Assembly (NCBI GenBank): GCA_963695095.1 | Contig: CAVOFT010000001.1 | Span: forward strand, 96,001 to 160,000 | From: an uncultured bacterium | GTDB taxonomy: Bacteria > Krumholzibacteriota > Krumholzibacteriia > JACNKJ01 | Direction of reading: 5' to 3' | DNA length: 64,000 bases | In this document: in pieces, positions 11,279 to 28,373 of the stretch | Layout: every line of letters starts with the position of its first letter | Numbering within the stretch: the stretch's first letter is position 1 | Made by a program: the position numbers and the translations under genes | Notes under the pieces: generated by a model | What the model saw: the letters and a program-made list of their open reading frames with translations, nothing else | The model's database searches: none | Told to the model about the DNA's origin: nothing

Positions 11279-11995
11279 CTACCAGGCAGCCTTCACGGCG
11301 CTGAAGGAACTGGGGGCCGTCGGCGTGGCCTCCCAGGCGGCCATCACGCTCTGCAGGTAGTAGTGTCCGTCGAGATCGACGTCGTGGTCGAAGCCGAAGA
11401 GAATGCTGCCCACGCCGACCCCGCCGACGCCGTGGGTCTCGGCAGGGACGATGAGCGCGCCGTCCAGAGAAACGGCGCAGGTACCCGCAATCATGTCAAA
11501 GACGATCTCCAGCAGCAGGTCCTCGCCGGTCGTGTAGGTGCCCACAGGATCCAGGCCGACGTCATCCGCATCCCCCTGCGACACGGTGCCGCTTTCCTCG
11601 AAGCGCAGGTCCAGAAAGGACGAAGCGGAGTGCAGGGGCTCGCGCACGTAGACGACGTAGTCCTCGTAGTCGACGAAGTACAGCACGGCACTCAGCGTGA
11701 GGATCCCTGTTGTGACTTCGGTGGTGTCCAGAAACTCGAAGCGCACGACGTCGGTGCCGTAGTCGAGGTAGTCGAGGATCTCGAGCGCGCTCCCGCCGGT
11801 GGGGCTGATGCGCACCATCGCCGGCATGCCGCCGATGTCGACAGGCTGATGGGCAGCGGCGCCGTCCGTGCCGATAGGCTGATCGATGGGCTGATCCTCG
11901 AAGTCGCAATCGAGCAGGATGTCGGCTGCTGCCGGCTGGACGAGACAGACGGTGATCAGGGCGAAGAGACGCAGGGCGAGCGGGGAGCGAAGCAT
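11279..11995 (-). CDS. Secreted acidic beta-sandwich-like protein with C-terminal TPTAPSSFSAVKAAW tail
   Basis: GGAGG RBS before ATG 11995; signal peptide ending AAA-D. Confidence 0.8.
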   Translation of the reverse strand: MLRSPLALRLFALITVCLVQPAAADILLDCDFEDQPIDQPIGTDGAAAHQPVDIGGMPAMVRISPTGGSALEILDYLDYGTDVVRFEFLDTTEVTTGILTLSAVLYFVDYEDYVVYVREPLHSASSFLDLRFEESGTVSQGDADDVGLDPVGTYTTGEDLLLEIVFDMIAGTCAVSLDGALIVPAETHGVGGVGVGSILFGFDHDVDLDGHYYLQSVMAAWEATPTAPSSFSAVKAAW

Positions 11996-12202
11996 GGCAG
12001 TCCTCCAGTTTGGGGCGGGACGCATGAAATCAGGTGCACCTTATCCGAATCCCCCCCAGGCAACAATTAGTACTGCACAAATATTGTAACGAACAGTCCG
12101 GTGGCGGGAAGCCTGCATATGGCTCTCGAGGGGGCGTCCTGCCGCGAGGCCGGCCGCCCCGGCGGCTCCGCGCCCGGGAGCGCGGGGAAAGGACCGATCC
12201 GT

Positions 12203-14025
12203 TTGAGCCCCGATCGGGAAGCACAGCGCGTGGACGGCAGGGCCGACAGCGTCGCGCCGGTCGTCGCAAGCCGAGAGGACGACCTGCTGAATGCATGGGA
12301 TCGCCTCCTGGCCATCGCGTCGCTCTATCCCGCTCAGAATACGCGCTTCCGCGACGCCGTGGCCGAGTGGCGCCAGGCCCTGCGCCCGGTGGCCAGGGCC
12401 GACGGCAGCTTCTGCATCGAGGTCGGCCGCGAGGATCGGCTTGCCCACGAAGGCCGTGTCCAGCTGACCGAGCGCGTGGCGCGCAGCCGCCTCTATCCCC
12501 TGCTCATGGGCATCGGCGTGGAGCACGCCGTGCTGAGCATCGACATTGCCGATGAGGCGCTGCACCGGCTGCTCGCTGTCCTGCGGGAGGCACGGCGGGC
12601 TGCCGATCGCTCCATCGGTTTTCAGCACGCCGAGTTGCCCGAGCTGCCCGCGGGCGTGACGGTCGCGCTGCGCAGCTTCGGCAACCCTGGGGAGACAGTG
12701 CTTGGTTCCGTTCTGGGCAGCGGCGGCGAAGGCGGCAACGGCGAAGGCGGCGGGGCGCCTGGCGCGGTGGCCCCTGCCGGTTGCCGATGGCCGATGTGCA
12801 CAACCCCCACGTCGGCGTGCAGAGCGACCTCGCCCGCTCGCTGGAGGACCGGCTCACGGCCCAGGCTGCGACGCTCTATCGAAAGCTCACCCGGGACGCC
12901 GTGCCGGAGGCCATCAGCGAAGCGGTCGACAGCGAGACCGCGGCCGAGCCCCCGGCGGGGGAAGGCGGGCGCACGGTGGATCCTGCGCTGCCTCTCGACG
13001 CGCAGCGCTTGCACGCCCAGCTCGCGCGATTGGATACGGGCGCCCGCTTCGACAGCACCTTGCTTGGTCCCAGCCAGCCGGAGTGGGTCGCCCTTCTACT
13101 GCAGCACGCACTGGTCAATGACGCCGGGGCGACCGCCCTCCGCGCACGCCAGGAACTCGCGGCAGCCCTGGAGCGCGAGCTCGGGCTCCAGGAGATACAG
13201 ATCATCGTCACCGTCTGCGAAGGCCTGCTCGACGCGGGCGATGCGGAGCGGGCGGACGCGCTGCTCCCCTTGCTGCTGGACCCCCTCGCGCAGCAGCGGC
13301 GGCTCGAGCCCGTGCTCTCCGCGCTCGCGGACGGCGCCGATGCGAAGCGCCGCGAGCTGCTCTGGCCGCACCTGGCCGACGCCCTCCTCTGCGAGGCTGT
13401 CACCGTCGGCCTCGCCCAGGTCAAGGGCGCTGACGGCGAAAGCGCCCTGGCCCTGCCCGCCGACGCGCGCAGCCGCGTGCTCGAACGCCTGGAGGCGCGG
13501 CCGGCCCTGCAAGCCGGACGCATTGCGGCCTCCGTCTTCCGGCCGCTGCGCCCCGAGATGCAACCTCTGATCCTCGTTCTCCTGCAGAGTTCGCGGGGCA
13601 GCACCGTCGGCGACCAGCTGCGCGCGGCGCTCCTGGAATCGCCGCCGCCGGCCCCCTTCGCCGGCGTGCTGGCGCTCCTGGGCGACTTCAAGCCGAGCCA
13701 GCGGGAGTTCTACCGTCTGCTCATTGCCGACGCGGCGGAGGCCGGCCCCGCGCTGGACCGGGAGGCGGCGTCCCTCGCCTTGCAGATCCTGCCGCGGCTG
13801 CCGCGCGGCGAGCGGCGGCGGCCCGAGGTGGGCGATGCCCTGCGCGCACTGGTGGCCGCGCCGACCGGCGAGGCCGAGGCCTTGCTCGCCTCCGTGCTCG
13901 CCGAGCGCCGGCTGCTCTTCCTGCCCGCCTGGCCTGCCGCGGCGCGGGGCCAGGCGCAGCAGATCCAGAAGCGCCGCCACCGGGGGCGCACCCTGGCGGC
14001 GCGGGTCGACGAGGAGCGAGCATGA
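12203..14025 (+). CDS. Helical (HEAT-like) hypothetical protein, partner of the downstream HD-GYP; frameshift near 12780, start uncertain (12101-12203)
   Basis: ORFs 12101.. and 12781..14025 read as one Leu/Ala-rich helical protein; ATGA overlap with the next gene. Confidence 0.6.
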
Positions 14026-15470
14026 ACGCGCGCGTCGACGAGCTCGTCACCCTGCTCAGCCGCGGCATCGCGCAGCGCAGCATCTACTTCGCGGAGCACC
14101 CGAACGTGCGGGCCTGCAGCCGGGACCTCGCGCAGCGGCTCGCCCGGGAGATCGCCGGCGACGAGGCGGGGTTCTTCCTCGGGGCTGTCGAGGGCCGTCT
14201 CATCCATGAGGGCCGGATGCTGCTCGGCGCCTCGATCCTCGGCCACAAGGTGGCCACCTTCCTCGCCCGCCTGGGCAGCGGCGGTCTGCTCTTCAGGCGC
14301 GGCGTCGAGGCGCAGGAGCTGGCCACGCTCTTCGATCTCGCGGCCCTGCAGACGGAGGCGCTGGCCGGCGGCCTGGCGACCGCACGCGAGCTGCTGGCGG
14401 CGCGCGGCGTGCGGCACATCGAGCTGTCGCCGCGCTTCGAGGACGAGGACTGGTTCGGCCGGCGCGGGGCGCTCGTCGCGACGACGAGCGGCGAGGACGG
14501 CGAGGGTCTCGGCGGCCTGGGGGCCATGATTCCCATCTACCAGTCCCTCTTCGAGGCGGTGGAGACCGCGCACAGCCGCGCCGTCGGTGATCACGCCCTG
14601 GATATCCCCGGCGCCCGGGGCGCCAGCGAGCGCTTCCTCAACGCCTGCGAGGGCAGCTTCACCGACATGATGCAGCTCGTGCGCTACCCGGATGCCGACA
14701 GCTACACCGTGGGCCACTCCGTGCGCGTGGCGCTGCTCTGCGCTCTCGTCGGCCAGCATGTCGGACTGCCTCGCCCGCGCCTGAACGAAATGGCCACCGC
14801 CGGCCTCCTCCACGACGTCGGCAAGGCCAAGGTGCCCGGCGAGATCCTCTACAAGGCGGGCCGCCTGGACCCGGACGAGCTGCGCATCATGCGAATCCAC
14901 CCGGAGGCGGGCGCGAAGATCCTGCTGGAGAGCGGCGAGGCCTCGCCAACGGCCATCTGCGCGGCCTGGGGCCATCACCTGCGCCACGATCTGCGCGGCT
15001 ATCCCGAGGTGCCGGGCTGGGCGGTCCAGGGCGAGTCGACGGCCCTGCTGCAGGTCTGCGATGTCTTCGAGGCGCTGACGGCCGTGCGGCCCTACAAGCC
15101 GGCGACCACGCCGCTGCGCGCCTACGAGATCATGCTCGCGGATCCAGGCGCCTTCCATCCCGGCGCCCTGCGCGCGCTCGTCGGCGCGCTGGGCCTCTAT
15201 CCGCCCGGCAGCCGGGTCGAACTGGCCGACGGTTCGCGCGCCGTCGTGGTCAGCGCAGGCGAGGCCGCGGATCGCCCTCGCGTGCGCGTGGTGCGCGACG
15301 CGGGGGGCACCCCCATCGCGCGCGAGGATCAGACCCTGCTCGATCTTGGCGATCCCGCCGCAGCGGCGATCTCCGTGGACCGACTCCTCGCCGGCATCTT
15401 CGACACGGAGATCGGCGAGCTCGCTCCCGAGCCTGAGGCCCTCGACGCCGACCCGGCCCTGGGCGACTAG
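14022..15470 (+). CDS. HD-GYP domain protein (putative cyclic-dinucleotide phosphodiesterase)
   Basis: YTVGHS, GLLHDVGK, HP, HH..DLRGYP, DVFEALTAVRPYK. Confidence 0.9.
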   Translation: MNARVDELVTLLSRGIAQRSIYFAEHPNVRACSRDLAQRLAREIAGDEAGFFLGAVEGRLIHEGRMLLGASILGHKVATFLARLGSGGLLFRRGVEAQELATLFDLAALQTEALAGGLATARELLAARGVRHIELSPRFEDEDWFGRRGALVATTSGEDGEGLGGLGAMIPIYQSLFEAVETAHSRAVGDHALDIPGARGASERFLNACEGSFTDMMQLVRYPDADSYTVGHSVRVALLCALVGQHVGLPRPRLNEMATAGLLHDVGKAKVPGEILYKAGRLDPDELRIMRIHPEAGAKILLESGEASPTAICAAWGHHLRHDLRGYPEVPGWAVQGESTALLQVCDVFEALTAVRPYKPATTPLRAYEIMLADPGAFHPGALRALVGALGLYPPGSRVELADGSRAVVVSAGEAADRPRVRVVRDAGGTPIAREDQTLLDLGDPAAAAISVDRLLAGIFDTEIGELAPEPEALDADPALGD

Positions 15471-15491
15471 GCGTGAGTCCGAGAGCAGGAC

Positions 15492-15518
15492 AAAGCGCCG
15501 GGAGGGAACTCCCGGCGC
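15492..15518 (-). terminator. Intrinsic terminator hairpin
   Basis: Perfect 10-bp stem GCGCCGGGAG-ggaa-CTCCCGGCGC between convergent genes, followed by TTT on the minus strand. Confidence 0.65.
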
Positions 15519-15566
15519 CTCGGATTGCTCGCACGTTTGTGAGATAGCTCAGGATCGCCCGCAGGC

Positions 15567-16280
15567 TCAGTACAGAGACTTGATGGTGCTCAGCGACGCC
15601 TCCGCGACTCCCGTGGTGAGCCAGGCCAGGGTGTTGGCGAAGAGGATGTCGTAGTCGCCGCCGATGCCGCCGAAGTAGGCATCGGGGAAGAGGTTCACCG
15701 CGACCACGTTGAGGCGCTCGGCCAGCAAGGGCTCGCCGTCGTTCCAGGTCCCGTGCAGCGTGGCACCGTTCACGACGGCCACGTCGTCGTGGTAGAAGCC
15801 CGACAGCGACGCGACGCCCCCGAAGAAGGGATGCCCGTCGTTCCAGTCCATGACGACGGAGGTGTAGAGGCTGGGGCCCTGGAAGGCGAAGGGGCTGATG
15901 CCATCCGTGATGATGCGGCCGGCCAGCGTGTTGCAGCCCTGATCGGCCCAGGCGAAGGTGGCCAGCACCAGGCGACGCCCCGTATCGGCGTAGTCCGCCA
16001 GGATATCGCCGATGGCCACCATGTCTCCGGCGCAGCCATTCGTGAAGAAGAGGACGGCGTCGTAGTTCAGCAGATCGGCGAGGGTGAGGTTCAGGTCCTG
16101 GCTCGGCACGGCCGAATCGAGCAGGCCCGTGGCCATCAGGTAGTCGGCGACGCCCTGGGTGCTGCCGCCCTCGTTGCCCGTCGACCAGACGAGAACGTCC
16201 TGGGCAAGGGCGCTGGTGGCCATGCAGGCCGCCAGCAGGGCAAGGGTCAGCGCGGCAAGCTGCTTTCGCGTTCTTTTCAT
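15567..16280 (-). CDS. Secreted protein (class I glutamine amidotransferase-like alpha/beta fold) with C-terminal TGVAEASLSTIKSLY tail
   Basis: AAGGAG RBS; signal MKRTRKQLAALTLALLAACMATSALA-Q; LLNYDAVLFFT...LADYADTGRRLVL pattern. Confidence 0.8.
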   Translation of the reverse strand: MKRTRKQLAALTLALLAACMATSALAQDVLVWSTGNEGGSTQGVADYLMATGLLDSAVPSQDLNLTLADLLNYDAVLFFTNGCAGDMVAIGDILADYADTGRRLVLATFAWADQGCNTLAGRIITDGISPFAFQGPSLYTSVVMDWNDGHPFFGGVASLSGFYHDDVAVVNGATLHGTWNDGEPLLAERLNVVAVNLFPDAYFGGIGGDYDILFANTLAWLTTGVAEASLSTIKSLY

Positions 16281-16376
16281 TCCGCTCTCCTTCGTGTGTG
16301 GGTCTGGAAGCCCTGCCCGAGAGAGCGGTTCATTCCGGTGGCAGCGGGAAGTGTAGCACAAATGCGAGGGACGGGC

Positions 16377-17396
16377 CTAGATCGCTTCGAGGGCGAAGCC
16401 CTTCTCGCGAAACAGCGCGAGGCAGGCGTCCACCACGCGAGCGTCGAGCTGGCGGCCGCGCTGCGTCTCCAGCTCCGCGAGCACGACGGGCAGGGGATGG
16501 GCCGGCCGATAGGGCCGGTGCGTGAGCATGGCCTCCACGGTGTCGGCCACGGCCAGGATGCGCGCCTGGAGCAGGATCTCCTCGCCCTGCAGGCCGTCCG
16601 GGTAGCCGCTGCCGTCCAGGCGCTCCTGGTGCTGGGCGATCGCATCGGCCACCGGCCAGGGGAACTCGACCCGCTTGAGGATGCGCTGGGCTGTCTGCGG
16701 CGTGCGCCGCACGATGGCGCGTTCGGCGGGGCTCAGGCGGGCGGGCTTGCAGAGGATCTCCGCGGGCACGGCCACCTTGCCGATGTCGTGCAGCAAGGCC
16801 ATGATGCGCAGGCCTTCGAGCTGGAAGGCGTCGAGGTCCAGCTCCGCGCCCAGGGCGACGGCGAGCTGGGCCACGCGCCGCTGGTGGCCGGCGACGAAGG
16901 GATCGCGGCGTTCCACCATCGTAGACATCGCCTCGACGGCCCCGACGATGACGCGCCGGAGCTGGCCCAGGCTGGTCTTGAGCCGCCCGCTGGGATCGCC
17001 CAGGGCCGTCATGTCCTCGACGAGCACGGCATAGCCGGCCAGCTCGCCGTTCTCGCGCAGGCAGCGGCCGCTGAAACGCAGAAAGCGGGGACTGCCAGCG
17101 AAGGCCACGCTCGGTGACTGATCGAGCGTGAAGTCCTCCCCCGTGCGCTGCATGCGCGTGACCGCGGCGGCCAGGCCGAGTTCGGCCAGCACGGGCAGCT
17201 CGCGCAGGGCGCCGAGTCCGCGCAGCCTTGCCGGCGGGCAATCGCAGAGCTCGGCGAAACGGGCGTTGGCCTGCTGGACGCCTCCTGCCGGATCGAGCAG
17301 CAGCAGCCCGAAGGGCAGCCGCTCCACCAGGAGCCCGAGCAGGGCCTGGGGGCGCTCCGCCGTCTGCAGCGCGCTGCCGTCGCCCTCGAAGTGCAT
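16377..17396 (-). CDS. PAS + HD-GYP domain protein
   Basis: PAS LPFGLLLLDPAGGVQQANARF; ALLHDIGK, HQERLDGSGYPDGL, HRPYR. Confidence 0.92.
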   Translation of the reverse strand: MHFEGDGSALQTAERPQALLGLLVERLPFGLLLLDPAGGVQQANARFAELCDCPPARLRGLGALRELPVLAELGLAAAVTRMQRTGEDFTLDQSPSVAFAGSPRFLRFSGRCLRENGELAGYAVLVEDMTALGDPSGRLKTSLGQLRRVIVGAVEAMSTMVERRDPFVAGHQRRVAQLAVALGAELDLDAFQLEGLRIMALLHDIGKVAVPAEILCKPARLSPAERAIVRRTPQTAQRILKRVEFPWPVADAIAQHQERLDGSGYPDGLQGEEILLQARILAVADTVEAMLTHRPYRPAHPLPVVLAELETQRGRQLDARVVDACLALFREKGFALEAI

Positions 17397-17532
17397 GCCC
17401 TTTCCCCCTTGCCGAGCTGTCGGCGGCGGCCGCGACCGCCGCCAGCGCCTTGGCCCGTCGGCACTTGCGCCCGGACGCGGCTCCGCCCGGCGGCTGACCG
17501 CCCGAGCCCGTGCAAGGAATCGGCCAAGGGTA

Positions 17533-18102
17533 CTAGCGGCTGCGAACCGGCTTGAGTTCGTGCCCGGAGAGCTTGGGGTTGATCACGGCATCCTGGGCGA
17601 CGAGGAGGTGCACGTCCACATTGCGCGGCGACCCCTTGCCGTGCACGTAGCGCAGGAAGCCGCTGTCGGGATGCGGCAGGATGCGGATGCGGGTGTCGGG
17701 AGCCAGCGCCTCCGTGCGCAGCAGCGTGAGCGTGTTGATGAGCAGGCCGTCGCCGATCTTGTCGCGGATTGCCTGCGTGAACCCGGTGAGGACCTTGCCC
17801 ATGGCGAGGTTGGAGTAGTCGGGCAGCTCGTCGTGGAGCAGGCTGAGGCCCGGCGGCAGCTCGACGAGGTACTCGAGCGCTCGGATGCCGCCCTCGTTGC
17901 GGCGGCTGCCGTTCCACATCATCAGGTAGACGCGCAAGGTGTCCGACGGCTCGCCCTCGAAGATGGTGTCCGTGCCGGCGGCATCGAAGTAGGCGCCGAG
18001 GATGACCTCGGCCTGGCCGTCGTTCCAGAAGGAGGATTCGTCGTCCGCCAGGGCCGGCATGGCCAGGGCCGTGAGCAGGATGAGAGCGAGCAAGCGTTTC
18101 AT
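17533..18102 (-). CDS. Secreted hypothetical protein (cohesin/Ig-like beta-sandwich)
   Basis: GAGGA RBS; signal MKRLLALILLTALAMPALA-D; forms the C-terminal part of the chimeric 1112-aa ORF. Confidence 0.75.
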   Translation of the reverse strand: MKRLLALILLTALAMPALADDESSFWNDGQAEVILGAYFDAAGTDTIFEGEPSDTLRVYLMMWNGSRRNEGGIRALEYLVELPPGLSLLHDELPDYSNLAMGKVLTGFTQAIRDKIGDGLLINTLTLLRTEALAPDTRIRILPHPDSGFLRYVHGKGSPRNVDVHLLVAQDAVINPKLSGHELKPVRSR

Positions 18103-18268
18103 GGTCCTCAACTCCAGCGCAGCGCGGTTGCAGGGGCTAGCATAGCGGCCTGCGCGGCCCAGGACAAGGGCAGGGCGCCGTGGGGGTCGAATCGGCGCCG
18201 GGCGGGCAAACGCGAGGCGCGCGCGCCGAGTTCCCGCGCCCAGCGCTCGCGGGGCGCTCGCCGGCCGC

Positions 18269-19617
18269 CTAGCGCGCGGCCTCCTCGCCGCGCGCAGCCG
18301 TGTCCCAGCCGTCCAGGAGATCCGCGCGCGCTTCGCAGCCGCGAGCCAGCAGCCGCGCCCGGCGTGGCCTCCGCCAGGCGCAGGCGGTAGTAGCTGCCCT
18401 CGGGCTCGTAGCGCACGTCGCGCACCTCGCACTCCCCGTAGATGGTCGCCGTGAGGGCCTCGCCGCCGGCGGGCAGGAAGAGCACGGTTTCCCGGAAGGC
18501 CTCCTGACGGCGCCGGCCGATGGCCTCGCGCAGCACGTCCAGGCCATCTCCCGTGGCTGCGCTCACGAAGCAGGCCTCCGGCCAGCGCGTGCGCAGGCCG
18601 ATCAGGCCCTGCGATTCCTCGCCCAGGGCGTCCAGCTTGTTGAAGACGCGCAGGCAGCGCTCCGGATCGACGTCCAGTTCGCCCAGCACCTCGTCCACGG
18701 CATGGACCTGCCGGTCCCAGCGCGGATTGGCCAGGTCGACGACGTGCAGCACGAGGTCGGCCTCGCTCACCTCGGCCAGGGTCGCCTTGAAGCTCTCGAC
18801 CAGGTGGTGCGGCAGCTTGCGCACGAAGCCGACGGTGTCGGTGACGAGCACGGGCTCGCTGCCGTCCAGCTCCAGGCGCCGCGTCGTGGAATCCAGCGTG
18901 GCGAAGAGGGCGTCCGCCACGTGGACCTCGGCGCCCGTGAGCGCGTTGAGCAGGCTGCTCTTGCCGACATTCGTGTAGCCGACCAGGGCCACGCTGAAGC
19001 CGCGGCGCCGGCGCTGGCGGGCCTTCGTCTCGCTGACGCGGGCCACCTTGTCCAGCTCGCGCTTGAGCTGGATGACGCGGTCGCCGAGGCGGCGGCGGTC
19101 CACCTCGAGCTGGGTTTCGCCAGGGCCGCGGGTGCCGATGCCGCCCTCCTGCCGCGAGAGGTGCTCCCACATGCGGCGCAGGCGCGGGCGCAGGTACTCG
19201 AGCTGGGCGAGTTCGACCTGCAGCCTCGCCTGCCGCGTGCGCGCGCGGCGGGCGAAGATGTCCAGGATCAGCTCGGTGCGGTCGCAGACGTTGGTCTCCG
19301 TGCGCTTCTCGAGATTGCGCGCCTGCACCGGACTCAGCTCGCTGTCGAAGATGATCAGGTTGGCCTCGCGCTCCCTGGCGAGCGCGGCCAGCTCCTCCAC
19401 CTTGCCGCGGCCGATGTAGGTGGAGACGCTGGGCGCGTCCGCGCTCCTGGACCAGCGCGTGGAGCACGCGCGCGCCGGCGGCGCGGCTGAGCTGGGCCAG
19501 CTCCTGGAGGTTCTCCTCCTCCTCGTCGCGGTCGTCGTAGCGGAACACGGTGCCCACGAGGATCGCCCGCTCCTGCGGCGTGTTCTCGTGGGGATGAAAA
19601 TAGCGCGCTTCGGCCAT
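18269..19617 (-). CDS. hflX: GTPase HflX (frameshifts near 19440 and 18360)
   Basis: ERAILVG N-terminus; DRTELILDIFARRA, GPGETQLEVDRR, GYTNVGKSSL, LFATLD, DTVGF, NKLD. Confidence 0.95.
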
Positions 19618-19625
19618 GCTGCTCG

Positions 19626-20871
19626 CTAGCCCTTGCCGCGCAGCGGCACTTCGAGCACGCAGGGGTAGTCGGTGAGGTTCTCCAGGTAGCCCTCGCGCAC
19701 CACCGCCACGTCCTCGATGCGGATGCCGAGCTTCCTCTCCGGGTAGTAGACCCCGGGCTCGATGGTGATCACCATGCCGGGCTCGAGCGGCGCCTTGCCC
19801 GCGCGCAGGAAGGGATCCTCGTGCACCTCCAGGCCCAGCCCGTGGCCGAGGCCATGGCAAAAGCCCACCTGGGTGCCGGGGTGGGTCTCCAGGTTCTCGT
19901 AGCCCTTCTCGGCGAGGAAGTGCGCCACGCGCTCGTGCAGGCCCTTGAAGCTGAGCTGCGGCGTGTAGGCCTCGAAGCCCAGCACCGCGGCCTGGCGGAC
20001 GTGCTCGTAGGCCTTCTTCTGCGCGGCCGTCGCCTGGCCGGGCACGAAGGTGCGCGTCATGTCGAAGTAGTAGCCGGTCTCGATGTCCTTGGGGAAGATG
20101 TCGCAGACGATGGGCAGGCCCGTCTTCACCGTGCGCGTGTTCGTGCCCGCGTTGTGGGGCACGCCGCCCTCCTCGCCCTGGGCGACGATGCTGCCGTGGA
20201 GATTTGTGAGACCATGCGCGGCCATCGCCTGGTCGGCGGCGGCCTTGAGGGCGCCGATGGTGAGCGGCAGGCCCTTGGCGGTGTGAAGCGTGCTGCCCTG
20301 CGCGTGGCAGGCGGCCAGCGTGCGGCGGATGGCCTCGAAGCCGGCGCAGGTGCCCACGCCGGCGCGGCGCATCGCCTCGATCTCGGCCTCGGTCTTGATG
20401 GCCCGCGCCTTGGTGACCACGGGCTCTTTCTCGACGACCAGCGTGCAGCCCACGGCCTTGAAGGCCCGCCGCGCCCGCGGCAGCCAGGCGACGGCGCCCT
20501 CCAGGCCCGCGGCGCCGTAGAGCGCGACGCGGCCTTCGGCCTTCACCTTCTGCAGCACCCAGGCGAGCCAGGCAAGCTGGGCGTCGCCGGGCTTCCTGTT
20601 GTCCTTTGCCAGTTGCTGTGCCGGTGTAGTCGAGCGGGCGATCCACTTCAGGCCCGTCTTGGCCGCGTTGTCGCGCTCCATGTCGCCCACGATGAGCAGG
20701 CGCTCGCCGCCGCGCTTCCACACGAGGGTGGCGGCTTCTAGCTTCTGGCCGCCGACCAGGTACCAGAAGGCCGGGCTCTCTGGCGTGTCGCCGGTGAGCG
20801 AGCAGCACGTCGAGCTTGGCCTTTTCCATGAGGGCGTCGAGGCGGGCGGGCAGGGTCTTGTCGGCGGGCAT
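19626..20871 (-). CDS. Xaa-Pro aminopeptidase, M24 family (frameshift near 20800)
   Basis: DMTRT, HGLGHGLGLEVHE, TIEPGVY, GIRIED. Confidence 0.92.
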
Positions 20872-20935
20872 GGATCTCCTCGCTGGGCTTCGCGGCGCGC
20901 CGACCGCCGGCGCGGGCCGCCAGTATGCGACGGTG

Positions 20936-20979
20936 AGGGGGAAAACAGCAAGGGCGGCGCGCTGATGGCGCCGCCCCTT
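20936..20979 (-). terminator. Probable terminator after ftcD
   Basis: Minus-strand GGGCGGCGC-catcagc-GCGCCGCCC stem followed by TTGCTGTTTT. Confidence 0.55.
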
Positions 20980-21057
20980 CTCTGCTCACCCGGCCCGGTC
21001 CTGGTTCGGCGGTCGCCGCCTGGGACCGAGATGGCCGCCTGAACGGCCTTTGTGCGA

Positions 21058-22761
21058 TTATAGGCTGCGCTCCATGTGGGCGATCGCCCGGTCATGAATG
21101 GCCTGGGCATCAGTATACAACAAGCGCGCACGCTCATGCCAGTCCCTTGCGAGTTTCTCATCCGCAAGGCCCTTCAGGTTGATGCGGACGTTGAAACAGG
21201 CGCCGCGCACGCAGGCCAGGCCGAGCAGGGCGCCCACGCCCGCGTCGCTGGCGCTGTTCGTGTTGCCCACCTCGGCCACGCGCTCGCAGTGCTTCAGCAC
21301 CGCCAGGCCCAGCTCCATCACGGCGAAGGGCACGCGCGTGGCCGCCTCGGTGGCCTTCTGGATCGCCGCCTCACGCCGGGCGAGGTCGGCCTCGGTCGCC
21401 TTCGGCAACTTGAAGGCGGCCATCACCTGGTTGAAGGCCTCGGTGTCCTCGTCCACCTTCGCCTCGAGCTGGGCGCGCAGGGCGTCGGCCTCCTTGCAGA
21501 GCTCGGCCATCTCGCCCTCGACCGCCGCGTAGGCCTTCCCCCGCGTGAGCCGCGCCACCATGGCCGCCAGCGCCGCGGCCAGCGCACCGCAGAGGGCGGC
21601 GACGCTGCCGCCCCCGGGGGCGGGCGAGCTGGAGGCCAGCACCTCGGCGAACTCGGCCACGCCGAGTCCCATCAGCGGGCCGGGCGGCGCCGGGGGCAGG
21701 GACTTGGGCGAGACGGTGCCGCGCTCGAGCATCACCTCGATCACCTTCTCCTCGAGCTGGAAGGGATAGAGGTTGCTCAGGCCCAGGGCCTCGGCGGCCA
21801 GTTCCATCTGCTCCCACTCGCCGGCCGGCAGGCGCACGCCGTTCTGGCCGCAGTGGGCGCGGGCGGCGTCCAGCATGGCCTGCTTGGGCACCACGCCCAC
21901 GATCTCGCTGCCGGTGACCGCCAGGCCGCCGCCGCGCAGCTCGGCCTGGCGCTGAACTTCGGCGAAGGCCTGATAAAGCCCCACCCGCGTGTAGTCGAGC
22001 AGGTTCATGCTCACCTGGGCGGTGGCGGCGTCGTACATCATGCCCGCGGCCTGGGTCGTGGGCAGTGTGCCGGGCTCGTTCACGGCGCGGCCCTTGGCGT
22101 CGCGGACGATCTCGCCCGCCTCGTCGCGCTTGGCCCGCCCGCTCTCGCGGATGTCCAGCGCGATGCCGTGGGCCTTGCCCTTCACCGCCGTGTTCAGGTT
22201 GATGTTGTAGGCGATGAGGAACTGCCGTGCGCCGGTGGCCATCACGCCGCTCCTGGGCACGAAGACCTGCGGCCCGTAGTCGGGCTTGAAGTCCGGCGTC
22301 TTCAGCTTGGCGGCCAGGGCCTCGTACTCGCCCTTGCGGATGTCGGGCAGCGCCACGCGCTCGGGCCGCTGCGCGCTCTTGGCATAGAGGTAGACCGGGA
22401 TCCCCAGCTCCTCGCCCACGCGCCGGCCGAGCCGGTGCGAGAGCTCGATGCACTGCTCCCAGCTCGCCTCGCGCACGGGGATGAAGGGCACCACGTCGGC
22501 GGCGCCCTGGCGCGGGTGCTCGCCCGTGTGCCGCGTCATGTCGATGAGGGCCAGGCCCGTCTTCACGGCGTTGAAGGCGGCGGCCAGGACGGCCTCCGGG
22601 TCGCCGACGAAGGTGTAGACCGTGCGGTTGAAGTCGGGCCCGGCGTCCACGTCCAGCAGCGTGGCGCCCTCGCTCTCGCGAATGGCCTGGGCGATGGCCT
22701 GGATGATGCGGCGGTTGCGGCCCTCGCTGAAATTGGGCACGCACTCGATGATGGTGGCCAT
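21058..22761 (-). CDS. ftcD: Glutamate formiminotransferase-cyclodeaminase (bifunctional)
   Basis: IIECVPNFSEGR, HPRQGAADVVPF, IRKGEYE; cyclodeaminase SSSPAPGGGSVAA. Confidence 0.95.
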   Translation of the reverse strand: MATIIECVPNFSEGRNRRIIQAIAQAIRESEGATLLDVDAGPDFNRTVYTFVGDPEAVLAAAFNAVKTGLALIDMTRHTGEHPRQGAADVVPFIPVREASWEQCIELSHRLGRRVGEELGIPVYLYAKSAQRPERVALPDIRKGEYEALAAKLKTPDFKPDYGPQVFVPRSGVMATGARQFLIAYNINLNTAVKGKAHGIALDIRESGRAKRDEAGEIVRDAKGRAVNEPGTLPTTQAAGMMYDAATAQVSMNLLDYTRVGLYQAFAEVQRQAELRGGGLAVTGSEIVGVVPKQAMLDAARAHCGQNGVRLPAGEWEQMELAAEALGLSNLYPFQLEEKVIEVMLERGTVSPKSLPPAPPGPLMGLGVAEFAEVLASSSPAPGGGSVAALCGALAAALAAMVARLTRGKAYAAVEGEMAELCKEADALRAQLEAKVDEDTEAFNQVMAAFKLPKATEADLARREAAIQKATEAATRVPFAVMELGLAVLKHCERVAEVGNTNSASDAGVGALLGLACVRGACFNVRINLKGLADEKLARDWHERARLLYTDAQAIHDRAIAHMERSL

Positions 22762-22824
22762 CGTCTTCCTCCCGGGAACCGTCAGGGTATGAAGGCTGCA
22801 GGATAGTCCAGGGCGGGCGCGCGA

Positions 22825-23679
22825 TCAAGGCGCGGCGGGAGGCGCGATGTCATCGCGCAGGCGCGCCAGCACCCAGCGAATGGAGCGCTTGCTCTCCAGC
22901 AGGTTCTCGCCCCAGTTCCAGGTGGGGTGGGTCAGCGGCATCACCGTCCAGTCCACGGCCACCGAGTCGCCGCAGAGGCGCACGAACTCGAGCACGCTGG
23001 TCAGGCTGACGACGCCGTCGTTGGGATAGGATTCGGTGAGGGCGCCGCCGCTGCCGTCCTTGAAGCGATTGCCGGCCAGCACATGCCATTTAACCCTTGG
23101 ATCGGGCGGATTCGCTTCGTTGAAGGCGCCGATGCCCGCCGGCGTGCACCAACCTCTCGGATTCAAGGCCCCGAGCATGTTGACTCCCCCGCTGGGCACG
23201 CCGAGCAGGAAGACCTGCCGCACGGCGCCGGGATGCACGGTCACGAAGCGCCGCGCGAGCAGGCCGCCCATGCTGTGCGCCACCAGATGCAAATTCTCCG
23301 GCGGGATGGCCTGCGCCGCCAGCCAGGCCTCCAGGGCGGCCAGCGCCTCTTCGGGGCCATCATCTTCGGTGGCGCCCATCATGCGCGGCAGACCGGTGAC
23401 GATGTAGGCCTCGCAGTCGGCGGGCAGGAAGCGCAGGGCGGCCAGCCAGAAGCGGTCCCAGAGCCAGGTTTCGCCGCGGTAGCCGTGGATGAAGAGCACG
23501 CGGTGCACCGGCGCGGGCGGCGCCGCCACCGCCCCCGGGGGCGGCAGGTCGAGGCTGCGCGGCGCGCAGGCCCCCGTGCCGAGCGCGAGGCCGAGCGCCA
23601 GCAGGGCTAGGGCCGCGAGCGGGCTTGCCGCGCGCGCCGCGCGCAGGCAATATTGCCGGGAATTCGGGAGCGCCGCCAT
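22825..23679 (-). CDS. Alpha/beta hydrolase (lipase/PGAP1-like), probable lipoprotein; start uncertain
   Basis: FIHGY, AHSMGG nucleophile elbow, NDGVV, LTH; hydrophobic stretch ending TGAC. Confidence 0.85.
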   Translation of the reverse strand: MAALPNSRQYCLRAARAASPLAALALLALGLALGTGACAPRSLDLPPPGAVAAPPAPVHRVLFIHGYRGETWLWDRFWLAALRFLPADCEAYIVTGLPRMMGATEDDGPEEALAALEAWLAAQAIPPENLHLVAHSMGGLLARRFVTVHPGAVRQVFLLGVPSGGVNMLGALNPRGWCTPAGIGAFNEANPPDPRVKWHVLAGNRFKDGSGGALTESYPNDGVVSLTSVLEFVRLCGDSVAVDWTVMPLTHPTWNWGENLLESKRSIRWVLARLRDDIAPPAAP

Positions 23680-25237
23680 GAACCACCTCGCCCGCCCTGC
23701 TCTTCTATTGCTCGCGCTGCTCGCCGCGGCGGGCTGCGGGGAGGATACTCCCGTCTCGCCGGACCCGCCAGGCCTGCCCCTGCCCACCTACTACATCATC
23801 GAGAACCGCGTGGACGGGGACCTCATCGGCTGGGCGAGCGCGCTCACCCGCTACGACGCGGCCGACTGGCGCGGCGAGGTCTATCGCCCCGAGCGACACC
23901 CCTGGCTGGGCTGGCGGGAGACGGCGCTCGGGCCCGGCCCCGCGCTGGACTGGACCCAGGGCCCGGAGGCCGGACCGCCGCGCGCGGGGCGCGTCGCCCT
24001 GGACGGCACGAGCTGGGCGGCCCTGCTCGCCGGCTGGGGCGAGCTCGCACTCACGCGAAGCCTCGCGTCCTCGCTGATCTCGCCGCTGCTGCTCGATCTC
24101 CACTCGCCTCTCGCCGCCGCAGCGCTCGGCCGGGCCTGGCTGGCGGCGGGCCGGCCCGCCAGCCTGGCGCTCTCGCTCATCATCCTCGCCGATCCCGGCG
24201 TGGCGCCGCAGGCGGAGTCCGCCACCCTCGTCTACGACGGGCCCGGCGGGGACCGCGCGGACACCGAGGATTTCCACATGGACCTGGCCGCCGGCACCGC
24301 CTACCTGCGGCTCTACGCGGCGCATTTCCCGGCCCCCTTCGCGGTCTGGTGGGAGGGCTATGGGCTCCGCCTGCTCGAGTGGGGCGCCGAGCCGCCGGAC
24401 ATCGACGAGCAGGCCTTTGCGCCCAGCTTCCCGGCGCCGGCGGGCTACACGGCCTCCGAGATCACGCTCGACGCGGGCGGCCTCGACCTCGCCGCCACGC
24501 GCTGCCGGCCGGAGGGCGCTGGGCCCTTCCCGGCGGTCCTGCTTCTCGCCGATGCCGGGCTCGCGGACCGCAACGACGCGGCCGTCTTCGGGCATCTCGC
24601 CCCTGCGCTGGCCGCGGCGGGCGTTCTCGTGCTGCGCTACGACGAGCCCGGGCGCGGGGCCAGCCCCGGCGATCCGGATGCGCTGGATCTCGGCCTGCGC
24701 CGCGCGGCGCTGGCCGCCGCCTGGGCCGCTCTGCTCGCGGATGCCGACGCCGATCCCGGGGCCTGCGCGCTGGTCGGCCACGGCGAGGGCGCGGCGCTGG
24801 CCCTCGAGGCCGCGGCCGCCGATCCCAGCGTGGCCGCAGTGGCGGCGCTCTCGCCGCCGCTCTACGACCCGGCGCGGGTCCCGGCCATTCCGGAGGCCGA
24901 GACCGGCGCGGACTGGGTGACGCTGCTGGGCCGCGAGGTCTTCGCCGGCAAGCACGCCGACCTGCTCGCCTTCGCCAGCGAGGACTTCCTGAGCGATGCG
25001 GGCTGGGCGGGTCGGCCGGTGTTCCTGCTGCGCGCGGGCGACGATTCGCGCCTCTCCGCCGAGGACTTCGCCGCGCAGAGTGCCTGGCTCGCGGGTGCCG
25101 GCGCCCAGCTCAGAGCGAGCGAACGCGACGGCCTCAGCGCCTTCCTCACGGCCGGCGCTCCCGACGCCCCCCCCGACGCTGTCCTCGTGGCGGATCTGCT
25201 GAGCTGGCTCGCGGCGACTTTGCCAGCGGCGCCCTAG
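23678..25237 (+). CDS. Lipoprotein with C-terminal alpha/beta hydrolase-like domain lacking the catalytic Ser
   Basis: Lipobox-like AAAGC; GPFPAVLLL..G..DRN, VLRYDEPGRGAS; elbow reads GHGEG. Confidence 0.8.
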   Translation: MNHLARPALLLLALLAAAGCGEDTPVSPDPPGLPLPTYYIIENRVDGDLIGWASALTRYDAADWRGEVYRPERHPWLGWRETALGPGPALDWTQGPEAGPPRAGRVALDGTSWAALLAGWGELALTRSLASSLISPLLLDLHSPLAAAALGRAWLAAGRPASLALSLIILADPGVAPQAESATLVYDGPGGDRADTEDFHMDLAAGTAYLRLYAAHFPAPFAVWWEGYGLRLLEWGAEPPDIDEQAFAPSFPAPAGYTASEITLDAGGLDLAATRCRPEGAGPFPAVLLLADAGLADRNDAAVFGHLAPALAAAGVLVLRYDEPGRGASPGDPDALDLGLRRAALAAAWAALLADADADPGACALVGHGEGAALALEAAAADPSVAAVAALSPPLYDPARVPAIPEAETGADWVTLLGREVFAGKHADLLAFASEDFLSDAGWAGRPVFLLRAGDDSRLSAEDFAAQSAWLAGAGAQLRASERDGLSAFLTAGAPDAPPDAVLVADLLSWLAATLPAAP

Positions 25238-25279
25238 GCGGCGCATGCGCTCCCTGGGCGGCGCCAGCGCGCCCCCCGG

Positions 25280-26422
25280 TCAGAAGGTGAGCGGGCGGCC
25301 GCCGCCCAGGCCCACCAGCTCCACGTAACCCTGTCCGCGGGGCGAGCCGCCCAGGCCGCGCAGCTCCACCGCGCCCTCCCAGTAGTTGAAGCCGCTGCGC
25401 GGGCCCACGTTCTCCTGCGCGGCGAGGCGCGGGATCACCTCCAGCACGAGCTGCGCGCTCGGCACGGCCACCCGCCAGCGCTCGGGATAGCGCGTGCCGG
25501 TGGCCGGGCTCTCCCAGCTTCCCGCGGGCGTGGCCTGCCAGTCGTCCGGTCCGAGGTAGCGCACGCTGCCGTCGGCCTCCACCAGCGTGCCCCGCCGCCA
25601 GTCGGGGCGGCCCTCGCGGTCGCGGAGCTGGTAGAGCATCAGCTCGCGGCCGTCGGCGAGCTGCAGGCTGAACCAGTCCCAGCCCGCTTGCTGGGGCTCG
25701 AGCTGGTTGCTGCCGAACTCCTTGTCGAACCATCCCTCGCCGCGCACTTGGCGCTCTCGGCCGCCGACGCGCAGCGTTCCCTCCAGCGCCAGGCGCGTGA
25801 AGCTGTAGTACTGGCTCGCCGAGCTGGGCCCCGCGCCCTTGCGGCTGTAGCCGTTCGGTCCCTGCAGCACCAGCGGCTTGAGCGGTCGCGTCTCGAGGCG
25901 AAAGGCCATGCCCTGGGCGCTGTCGGCCATGCTGACGGTGAAGGCCTCGCCGTTCCACTCGAGGGTCCAGCGCCCCTCCGTGCCCGCGGGCGCGCGGCTC
26001 CAGGCGATCAAGGTGTCGGGGTAGGCGCCGAAACCCGCGAGCAGGGGGCTGGCGCGATAGAGCAACTCGCTGAAGTGGTGCTCACCGGCCGCGAAGTCGC
26101 CGATGGCCGCGTGGCCCATGATGAGGTTGCGCGCGCTCCAGGCGGAGCCCGGCGCTGCCGGCCCCGGCGTCAGCCCGATGCGGAAGATCGTGAACTGCAT
26201 GCCGAAGCGCGCGGCGGGATCATCCACGTCCTCGAGCTGTGCGGTGAGGTACCACCACTCGGTCTGGTAGTCGGCATGCGACCAGTGGTCTTCGGGAAAT
26301 CGCCAGGCGTAGCTGGAGTCGGCGGGCTGCCAGCTTTCGGCGCGCGCGCCCACGGCCGTAGTGAGCCATGCCGCCGCGAGCAGTGTCTTCAGCAAATGAG
26401 AGGCGCAGCCAAGGCGAACCAT
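25280..26422 (-). CDS. Lipocalin-like CrtC/AttH family secreted protein
   Basis: FPEDHWSHADYQTEWWY, SQYYSFTRL, GWFDKEF, GWDWFSLQL, YWEGAV, GQGYVEL. Confidence 0.92.
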   Translation of the reverse strand: MVRLGCASHLLKTLLAAAWLTTAVGARAESWQPADSSYAWRFPEDHWSHADYQTEWWYLTAQLEDVDDPAARFGMQFTIFRIGLTPGPAAPGSAWSARNLIMGHAAIGDFAAGEHHFSELLYRASPLLAGFGAYPDTLIAWSRAPAGTEGRWTLEWNGEAFTVSMADSAQGMAFRLETRPLKPLVLQGPNGYSRKGAGPSSASQYYSFTRLALEGTLRVGGRERQVRGEGWFDKEFGSNQLEPQQAGWDWFSLQLADGRELMLYQLRDREGRPDWRRGTLVEADGSVRYLGPDDWQATPAGSWESPATGTRYPERWRVAVPSAQLVLEVIPRLAAQENVGPRSGFNYWEGAVELRGLGGSPRGQGYVELVGLGGGRPLTF

Positions 26423-26455
26423 GCCGTCACCATAGCACGCCGGCTGCTGCGCAGG

Positions 26456-27835
26456 TCAGTACAGCGACTTGATGTGACCCCAGCTCCTGGACTCCACGCC
26501 GGTCAGCACGCAGCCCACGTCGAACGCGCCGATGAGCTGCCCGCACTCGTTGTTCGCGGCCGCGCATGGCGAGCCTGTCTGCAAAGAATAGGGACTCTCC
26601 GGATTGAGGGCGCCGCCACAGAAGAGCGGGTCCAGGGCGATGTTGCCGTTCGTGCCCGTGGGGTCGACCATCTCATCGAGGAAGTCGCCGCCCAGATTGC
26701 CCCAGACGTCGCAGCAGCTGAGTTGCGGGCCCGGGATGTTGTTCACCGAACTGATGCCGCCGCCCTGGTTGAAGGCGACGATCACCCGGTCGAGCGTGGG
26801 ATTCGAGCCGAGGACGCAGCGCAACCCGCCAGCCGCGTTCGTGGCCGTATTCCCGACGATCGTGGTGGCGCTGAGACTGACGTTCGCGAAGTCATAGAAG
26901 TACATCGCGCCGCCAAAGGCGGCCTGGTTGGCGTGGAAGAGCGACTCCTCGACGTTCACGGTGCCGCCCCAGACAAAGAGGCCGCCGCCGCTGCCGGTTG
27001 CCTGATTTGCCTCCACTGTGCAGCGGCGGATGTCCAGGAGATCCACCTCCGTGCCGCAGTAGATGGCCGCCCCCCAGCGCGCCGTGTTCTCGCGGAAGAG
27101 GCAGTCTTCAAGGGTCACATGAGTGTTAGCAAGCCAGACATACACACCTCCTCCATCCCCGCCGCCAATCGAGGTATTTCCTAAGAACTCTACATCAGAG
27201 CAATAAACGGATGATCTCGCGATGTTTCCCCCTCCAGCATCTGCTGCACGATTGCCAACAACCATGCCCCGAACATACTCGATCTCCGAGTCCGTGGCCG
27301 TGAAGCCGCCTCCGGTTGAGGCTGTGTTGTCTCGCAATACCACATCTACCAGCATGGATCGCTCCGAAGCGAGAAACCGCACCCCGCCCGCGGCGAGTGC
27401 CTCACACTGCTCGATGGTGACGCCAATGAGTGAGCAACTTGCGCTCACGCACGATATCCCGCCTCCATTCGCCTCCTGCACTTTGCCGTACCGAATCGTG
27501 AATCCCGCAACTACCGCGGCATTCGATTCGCCAGAGTGAAAGTCCATGCCTCGCCCAAGCTGCTGGCAGTCGATGATCGTCTGATCACGGCCCGCTTCGG
27601 AGATCAGTACGAGATCGATGCCATGGAAATCGAGGTTGCGGTTAGCTGACCCGGTGTAGGTACCGGGCCCGACCAGCACGGTATCGCCCACCTGGCAGGC
27701 ATCGATGGCGGGCTGGATCGCCACGAAATCTCCTGTTCCGTCGAGGCGCACGGTGTGCGTGACCGCGAGGGCGCTGCTGCTCAGTGCGAGCAGCAGCGCC
27801 CCAGCTTCCAGGAACAGCACGGATGCATGGCGCAT
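26456..27835 (-). CDS. Secreted right-handed beta-helix (Pmp-like repeat) protein with C-terminal TGVESRSWGHIKSLY tail
   Basis: GDFVAIQPAID..GDTVLVGPGTY; repeated FxxNxA..GG[AG]; GNIALDPLFC; GGAGG RBS. Confidence 0.9.
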   Translation of the reverse strand: MRHASVLFLEAGALLLALSSSALAVTHTVRLDGTGDFVAIQPAIDACQVGDTVLVGPGTYTGSANRNLDFHGIDLVLISEAGRDQTIIDCQQLGRGMDFHSGESNAAVVAGFTIRYGKVQEANGGGISCVSASCSLIGVTIEQCEALAAGGVRFLASERSMLVDVVLRDNTASTGGGFTATDSEIEYVRGMVVGNRAADAGGGNIARSSVYCSDVEFLGNTSIGGGDGGGVYVWLANTHVTLEDCLFRENTARWGAAIYCGTEVDLLDIRRCTVEANQATGSGGGLFVWGGTVNVEESLFHANQAAFGGAMYFYDFANVSLSATTIVGNTATNAAGGLRCVLGSNPTLDRVIVAFNQGGGISSVNNIPGPQLSCCDVWGNLGGDFLDEMVDPTGTNGNIALDPLFCGGALNPESPYSLQTGSPCAAANNECGQLIGAFDVGCVLTGVESRSWGHIKSLY

Positions 27836-27866: not shown

Positions 27867-28373
27867 CTACATCTCCTTCAGATGCAGAATCAGCCGAGCC
27901 CAGATTCCCTCGTTCTCGCTCAAGGATACCACATTTCCGGCGCCGAGCGCATCCGCCGCGAGGCGGCCAATCAGCAGCGTTTCCTGGCTTCTTCCCTCCG
28001 CCAGGCTCTGCCGAAGGATCGGTGTAATGTCGAGCTGGAGGATCGCCTCCGATTCGCCAAAGGCATAGGCCGCCACGGGTCCCGTCTTGCCTTCGGGGAT
28101 CAATACGGTTCCATCGCGGAATGCTGCGGCCTGAACCTCGGAGGCGCCATCCTCGCCGCTCTCGGGAATCAGGCGCAGCTCAAGAAATCCAGAGAGGATC
28201 GCCGCGGGTTCCGTAACCGCGGGAATCGCAACGCTGACTGCGTCCAGTTGCCGGCCATCGTAGACTACCGAGCTCACGCTCGCGGTCGAAAGCGCGGCTT
28301 CATGCATCGCCGCCCCTGCCGGCGGCACGCAGCCAAGAACTGCCAGGATAGCCAGGAGTGCGTGTTTCATCAT
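27867..28373 (-). CDS. Small secreted hypothetical protein (DNRLRE-like C-terminal pattern)
   Basis: Signal MMKHALLAILAVLGCVPPAGA; LDITPILRQSLAEG..LLIG..ARLILHL; starts 13 bp after the upstream stop. Confidence 0.65.
   Translation of the reverse strand: MMKHALLAILAVLGCVPPAGAAMHEAALSTASVSSVVYDGRQLDAVSVAIPAVTEPAAILSGFLELRLIPESGEDGASEVQAAAFRDGTVLIPEGKTGPVAAYAFGESEAILQLDITPILRQSLAEGRSQETLLIGRLAADALGAGNVVSLSENEGIWARLILHLKEM

Follow-up and report, generated by a model that had tools for sequence, protein, structure and literature searches.

A short portable tag takes the place of known sorting signals on exported proteins of Krumholzibacteriota and related uncultured phyla

The window analysed here, a 64,000-nucleotide stretch of an uncultured Krumholzibacteriota bacterium (contig CAVOFT010000001.1, positions 96,001 to 160,000), carries three minus-strand genes for exported proteins that share a 15-residue C-terminal tail, hereafter the tag. 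Gene 1 (11279..11995, 238 aa) consists of a signal peptide, a passenger and the tag; its passenger matched no family in Pfam and NCBIfam searches, and its look-alikes in the Atlas were unnamed clusters. Gene 2 (15567..16280, 237 aa) has a passenger with a class I glutamine-amidotransferase-like/ThuA-like fold, and gene 3 (26456..27835, 459 aa) encodes a right-handed beta-helix protein (PF13229, PF02415). Sec signal peptides are predicted, on the same strand, at 11924..11995 in gene 1 (by a heuristic, with the cleavage position inferred by eye), at 16203..16280 in gene 2 (by the heuristic) and at 27764..27835 in gene 3 (read by eye, having been missed by the heuristic). The tag copies, also on the minus strand, lie at 11282..11326 (TPTAPSSFSAVKAAW), 15570..15614 (TGVAEASLSTIKSLY) and 26459..26503 (TGVESRSWGHIKSLY). 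On a held-out profile, from whose construction the window tails were excluded, they scored 35–41 bits (35.4, 40.7 and 38.1 bits, respectively).

A sequence-only reading of the window had singled out these tails, credited all three genes with signal peptides and called their passengers unrelated. All of this held: the tails stand at the three stops with the letters as quoted, each gene has a Sec-type start, and BLAST revealed no link among the three passengers. In the predicted structure of gene 2, the domain has predicted local distance difference test values above 90 and the last seven residues fall below 50, which places the tag outside the folded domain. The same reading had noted a full tail resembling type IX secretion system (T9SS) tails within the window. 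This tail was identified as a T9SS type A C-terminal domain (CTD), not a tag, at the end of a neighbouring large protein (28387..28650, minus strand; TIGR04183, 36.9 bits with a cut-off of 23; PF13860).

The window tails are three of about 65 in the source genome (3.64 Mb, 93.5% complete, 2985 called genes). A loose six-residue pattern, run over six frames of this genome, found a lysine exactly three residues before the stop in 43 cases, and, with a threshold of 14 bits, a tail profile built from 53 seeds matched 65 copies at termini. Their consensus, T-[APG]-[TV]-E-x-x-[ST]-[WF]-[SG]-x-[IV]-K-[SA]-L-Y, comprises two parts, a linker (T/P-small-V/T-E) and a core ([ST]-[WF]-[GS]-x-[IV]-K). The lysine is kept in 63 of the 65 tails, in a proteome with 2.0% lysine and 8.0% arginine. 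At 20 bits or more, a profile trained on such terminal hits matched 60 of 11,940 terminal segments, compared to 1 of 953,702 internal segments and 0 of 59,700 shuffled termini. Given this training set, the terminal count is in part circular; a stop-free DNA pattern served as the independent test, and among its listed matches in other genomes, 131 of the 140 distinct ones end within five residues of a stop. By the signal-peptide heuristic, 54 of 63 tag proteins were positive, as were 98 of 146 CTD-like ones and 705 of the 2532 remaining proteins, and 59 of 71 complete open reading frames (ORFs) with a tag in other genomes have a signal peptide. These results indicate that the tag is enriched both at C-termini and on proteins with signal peptides. 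The first tag serine is encoded by AGY in 31 cases and by TCN in 15; the use of both serine codon families and the lack of any excess of third-position identity rule out a DNA-repeat origin.

The strict C-terminal position that had been proposed proved to be the usual place, with departures: extensions of 4–12 residues beyond the usual end occur, and in one source-genome gene and one Eisenbacteria gene the tag directly follows the signal peptide. Two mini-proteins of the source genome (C1:736712-736864 and 2770393-2770680; 50 and 82 aa) are barely more than a signal peptide and a tag.

BLAST sorts the 65 tagged passengers into 40 clusters of up to 12 members. In Pfam searches (E 0.01), 19 of 63 tag proteins matched beta-helix, cupredoxin, LTD, PD40, PPC or MAM-like families, none of them over the tail, and NCBIfam added weak choice-of-anchor matches. 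For the 44 of 63 carriers without any Pfam match, the tag is the only clue to an envelope location, and about 2% of the source genome's genes carry a tag that annotation misses. Carriers also include a protein with a CxxCH haem motif, a cupredoxin and a predicted lipoprotein, which are possible surface redox proteins. No entry in Pfam, NCBIfam or the PDB sequences covers the tag, and a literature search, made mainly outside subscription journals, returned no description of it. The tag is apparently uncatalogued.

Nineteen tag proteins of the source genome have a CTD-bearing paralogue. For 12 tag proteins, which belong to one beta-helix family and include gene 3 (34% identity to its CTD-bearing paralogue over 464 aa, E 6e-55), the homology stops at a shared C-x-x-T-[AG]-V junction, beyond which the tail follows in one copy and a type A CTD in the other. 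The sequence-only reading had likened TGV in the tail to the linker preceding T9SS CTDs, and this likeness was borne out over the first half of the tail: the linker motif was found before 64 of 103 CTDs, compared to 11 of 103 control segments, with a mean score before the 103 CTDs of 3.53 compared to 1.95 ± 0.26 for shuffled sequences. For the gene 2 domain, the ends of the best 150 homologues comprised 15 PEP-CTERM-like signals, 17 further ends with a transmembrane stretch and basic residues, 12 type A CTDs and a single tag, the remaining 105 being of other kinds, and NCBIfam, applied to 56 homologues, confirmed PEP-CTERM and MYXO-CTERM in several. These results indicate that the tag is a real, widespread and portable separate module in the slot of known sorting signals. 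The export or anchoring signal that had been proposed stands in the sense that the tag behaves as a portable sorting or anchoring module, swapping with T9SS CTDs, PEP-CTERM and MYXO-CTERM.

The tag works like a C-terminal sorting signal, yet it is not a member of the T9SS type A, PEP-CTERM or MYXO-CTERM classes. Like a type A CTD, it comes after a variable passenger that is preceded by a Sec signal peptide, begins at the shared T-small-V linker, has a near-invariant lysine near its end, occurs in genomes that encode SprA, PorV and PorU, and is interchangeable with the CTD in paralogues. Unlike a type A CTD, it is a helical stretch of 15 residues and not a beta-sandwich of 70–100, it gave no TIGR04183 or PF18962 match in the 63 tag proteins, it is also tolerated at the N-terminus, and its carriers have 137–460 aa (apart from the two mini-proteins and fragments) whereas the median for CTD proteins is near 590. 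Known CTDs can shrink to 40–51 residues, as in Prevotella intermedia, where a shortened T9SS signal follows a PT/GI cleavage motif; these, however, have three beta-strands and motifs B, D and E, none of which the tag keeps (PMC11969387). PEP-CTERM proteins with their exosortase (TIGR02595, PF09721) and MYXO-CTERM proteins (TIGR03901) resemble tag proteins in combining a signal peptide, a small domain and a short C-terminal signal, in having many paralogues per genome and in carrying the same passengers. They differ in that the tag, as had been noted from the sequence, lacks a transmembrane helix and a basic cluster, and in that exosortase does not track it.

The tail profile matched 80 of 81 genomes of the phylum. 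A pattern scan with one genome per species gave at least 138 stretches, and the named records among the listed matches come mostly from Eisenbacteria, Krumholzibacteriota and Latescibacterota. Tag-bearing proteins span at least three uncultured phyla. A tag is retained by 51 of the 57 homologues compared for one tagged protein, and one has PEP-CTERM; the ends vary after the lysine. On metagenome contigs, the pattern T-T-W-G-x-x-K gave 118 stretches, 68 of them in long frames; these 68, in which W, G and K are fixed by the search pattern, show a longer variant, A-V-[ED]-P-x-G-K-L-x-T-T-W-G, which may come from Poribacteria. The variant keeps both parts, with four more residues between the linker, whose V is present in 54 of 68, and the core, and it often has polar residues after the lysine. 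A profile of the N-terminal type matched 14 of 151 phylum genomes, and the 17 loci read outside the source genome were all C-terminal tags, none N-terminal. Viral contigs gave six pattern matches; of the four that were readable, two were internal and two were host-like and C-terminal. Two proteobacterial pattern matches, internal and within a protease domain, were rejected as chance.

Matches also occur in Patescibacteria, in 17 of 101 and 28 of 301 relatives of two Kerfeldbacteria-like genomes. The tag genes there lie on long contigs among low-G+C housekeeping genes, and 30 of 33 distinct tagged ORFs have a higher G+C content than the flanking sequence. The tag is C-terminal in 25 of the 33 and N-terminal in 8. 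The C-terminal copies would be explained by borrowing from hosts. The N-terminal tag precedes M23 peptidases, a C39-like peptidase and a CHAP domain. For one M23 family, in which a Patescibacteria origin is known for three members only, 3 of 16 members have a signal peptide and a tag, and 13 of 16 have a lipobox-like cysteine (8 by pattern, 5 by eye). In the tree of this family, the tag and lipoprotein starts are interspersed, and well-supported branches force at least two changes. This group of Patescibacteria carries G+C-rich host-type genes for tagged proteins, type A CTD proteins and lipoproteins, which may mark Krumholzibacteriota or Eisenbacteria as its hosts. Patescibacteria hosts are mostly unknown, and the copies of the tag point to hosts for this group.

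The source genome encodes SprA, PorU adjoining PorV, and 126 type A CTD matches. All 81 phylum genomes searched have SprA, and PorV was found in 61 of 61; among genomes picked by the tag pattern, SprA was found in 49 of 50 (50 tested out of about 90 in the pattern scan). PorU was found in 60 of 60 host genomes. The sole SprA-negative genome is an archaeal bin with its match on a 2.6-kb contig, probably mis-binned. The source genome has 11 PorV-family barrels, 10 of which stand beside a large cargo gene. The eleventh is an orphan without a cargo neighbour (C1:1893542-1894578), preceded in most of the loci read by a sigma-54 activator. Of 61 phylum genomes, 60 have it as a single copy, and it is present in 36 of 39 further host genomes. 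Its closest family is NF052325 PorV2 (127 bits, below the cut-off of 325), structure prediction gives it a beta-barrel fold, and it has an acidic, calcium-binding-like loop. The PorU–PorV locus (C1:2149969-2166439) continues with an M6-like protein bearing a variant CTD (NF052323, sub-threshold) and also holds several unannotated proteins with outer-membrane-like ends.

We consider it an even prospect that the T9SS of these phyla reads the tail as a two-part peptide signal for sorting. After Sec export, a PorV-family barrel at the SprA pore would bind the core, in the form of a short helix, in place of the 70–90-residue CTD, with the near-invariant lysine as a key contact. The best candidate readers would be PorV or the conserved orphan PorV2-like barrel without a cargo gene. 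In the weakest step, the sortase PorU would cut in the linker, releasing or anchoring the small passenger, and the Patescibacteria copies would have been borrowed from tag-bearing hosts. Dedicated shuttles for distinct signals have been described (PMC12618676). For type A CTDs, a near-invariant terminal lysine is the one conserved contact, which is itself not conserved in detail (PMC10994853). PorU cleavage sites measured in P. intermedia have the consensus PT/GI with a small residue at +1 (PMC11969387), which the T-[AG]-V junction of the tag appears to resemble. A motif of this type before the tag has matches in the source genome, and host genomes often have proline at +1. Support for the proposed T9SS-derived or dedicated reader comes from co-occurrence among related genomes and from the shared junction, and falls short of proof.

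Several results weigh against a T9SS sorting signal. The 12 swaps of CTD and tag come from a single family. In one Eisenbacteria genome, for which 30 of its 73 loci with CTDs and 30 of its 44 with tags were covered, proline stands at +1 in 22 of 25 tags, and the CTD linkers have glycine or alanine in 17 of 28; over the host genomes, 85 of 169 tags have proline at +1. Cleavage at the linker therefore fits poorly, and PorU cleavage in P. gingivalis is termed sequence-independent (PMC4804311). Known CTD binding buries a folded beta-domain (PMC10994853), so that a nine-residue helix would be unlike the known mode. The host genomes are kin in which SprA, PorU and PorV are universal, so that their co-occurrence with the tag cannot single out a reader and amounts to consistency, not proof; no paired loss of tag and T9SS was seen among the genomes compared. 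The orphan barrel gene is frameshifted in the source assembly. In five Patescibacteria genomes, an SprA search gave no match in any of the five, yet the N-terminal tag is kept, which suggests an anchor or docking use without the cell's own T9SS. A complex predicted for PorV, the PorV2-like barrel and a 32-residue tail together scored 0.00 in two runs, with an uncertain partner fold; controls were not folded and the three-chain job lay beyond calibration, and it gives no verdict.

According to the first alternative, which is possible though doubtful, the tag is a position-free docking peptide, neither cut nor an export signal, whose W-G-x-I-K core binds an envelope receptor, such as a scaffold at the surface, a protein of the outer membrane or a carrier of small proteins that itself bears a CTD; with it, Patescibacteria episymbionts would fasten their wall hydrolases to the envelope of the host. 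The extensions and the N-terminal copies (in the source genome, Eisenbacteria and 8 of 33 Patescibacteria ORFs) fit a signal for which a free C-terminus is dispensable. The alternation of tag and lipoprotein start in the M23 family (3 and 13 members), the frequent proline at +1 and the mini-proteins of signal peptide and tag point the same way. In addition, tag genes adjoin a CTD gene in 13 of 63 cases, compared to 209 of 2765 other genes; this adjacency, however, may just reflect islands of secreted genes, since CTD genes also cluster with one another (31 of 134). Against docking, the linker is conserved alongside the core, even in the longer variant, and no receptor emerged from the analysis. 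Moreover, wholesale borrowing can explain much of the Patescibacteria content, as host-type type A CTD genes occur in 3 of the 5 genomes examined for SprA and most tagged ORFs are G+C-rich.

A more specific proposal, which we regard as rather unlikely, is that the PorV2-like barrel reads the tag in a T9SS without the Gld motor, and that a Patescibacteria lineage living on Krumholzibacteriota or Eisenbacteria copied the tag along with host lipoprotein signals onto wall hydrolases, for capture by the envelope machinery of the host. A search for GldM (TIGR03517), the one Gld component covered, gave no match in the source genome nor in any control genome. The readings overlap in that a barrel-bound peptide would serve both host export and episymbiont docking.

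It is improbable that the tag works by itself, as an amphipathic helix that enters a membrane leaflet like that of MinD and needs no protein reader. The core has the same register as the Bacillus subtilis MinD helix KGMMAKIKSFFG, with hydrophobic residues at 0, 3, 6 and 7 and lysine at 4, and this short portable helix carries green fluorescent protein to the membrane (PMC13537761). The MinD sequence differs from the tag in being cytoplasmic and not a multi-copy exported tag, and in having neither a conserved linker nor a fixed W-G. The periodicity of the tail is helical, not beta, one source-genome tail ends W-S-R-I-K-S-F-F-G-F, and a lipid anchor, or a membrane anchor such as PEP-CTERM, can stand in the place of the tag. 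The amphipathic character claimed by the sequence-only reading is modest: the mean hydrophobic moment at 100 degrees is 0.475, compared to 0.318 for shuffled tails, and 11% of tails exceed the 90th percentile of the shuffles. In the longer variant, the residues after the lysine are often polar while W, G and K, which the search pattern fixed, stay, so that the second hydrophobic pair can be dispensed with. Lysine is hardly ever replaced by arginine, although arginine is four times commoner, and a bare membrane helix would not need a conserved linker.

Finally, it is very improbable that the tag is either a degenerate PEP-CTERM read by exosortase, to which the many tags reading P-x-E-P-[ST]-[ST]-W (like PEPxxWA-CTERM), the PEP-CTERM ends of homologues and an exosortase-family gene in the source genome would point, or a free-C-terminus ligand of a PDZ tail-specific protease: exosortase (PF09721) is largely ruled out as the reader by its distribution (41 of 81 phylum genomes, and none of four tag-rich genomes with 36–42 tags each), the tail has none of the membrane-spanning or basic features of PEP-CTERM, TIGR02595 matched 0 of 80 tails at E up to 10, and the extensions and N-terminal copies rule out the free-C-terminus ligand. 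The exosortase-family gene of the source genome lies at C1:3397546-3398304, and the scan found no PEP-CTERM-like proteins in that genome.

If the T9SS does read the tag, the system would accept not just a folded beta-domain but also a short helix; this would change the view of cargo choice by SprA and PorV-family barrels, give the orphan PorV2-like barrel a candidate job and offer a very small display tag. If the PorV2-like barrel is the reader and the Patescibacteria did copy the tag from their hosts, the tag would be a new class of T9SS signal and a marker of episymbiont host identity.

Elsewhere in the window, a small exported protein without a family match (27867-28373) is encoded immediately downstream of the large CTD protein. 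A membrane protein with a TPR end (9253-11239) and an HD-domain partner (12101-14025) are each encoded by a gene that apparently continues in another frame; these frame breaks, and others elsewhere in the assembly, are possibly sequencing indels.

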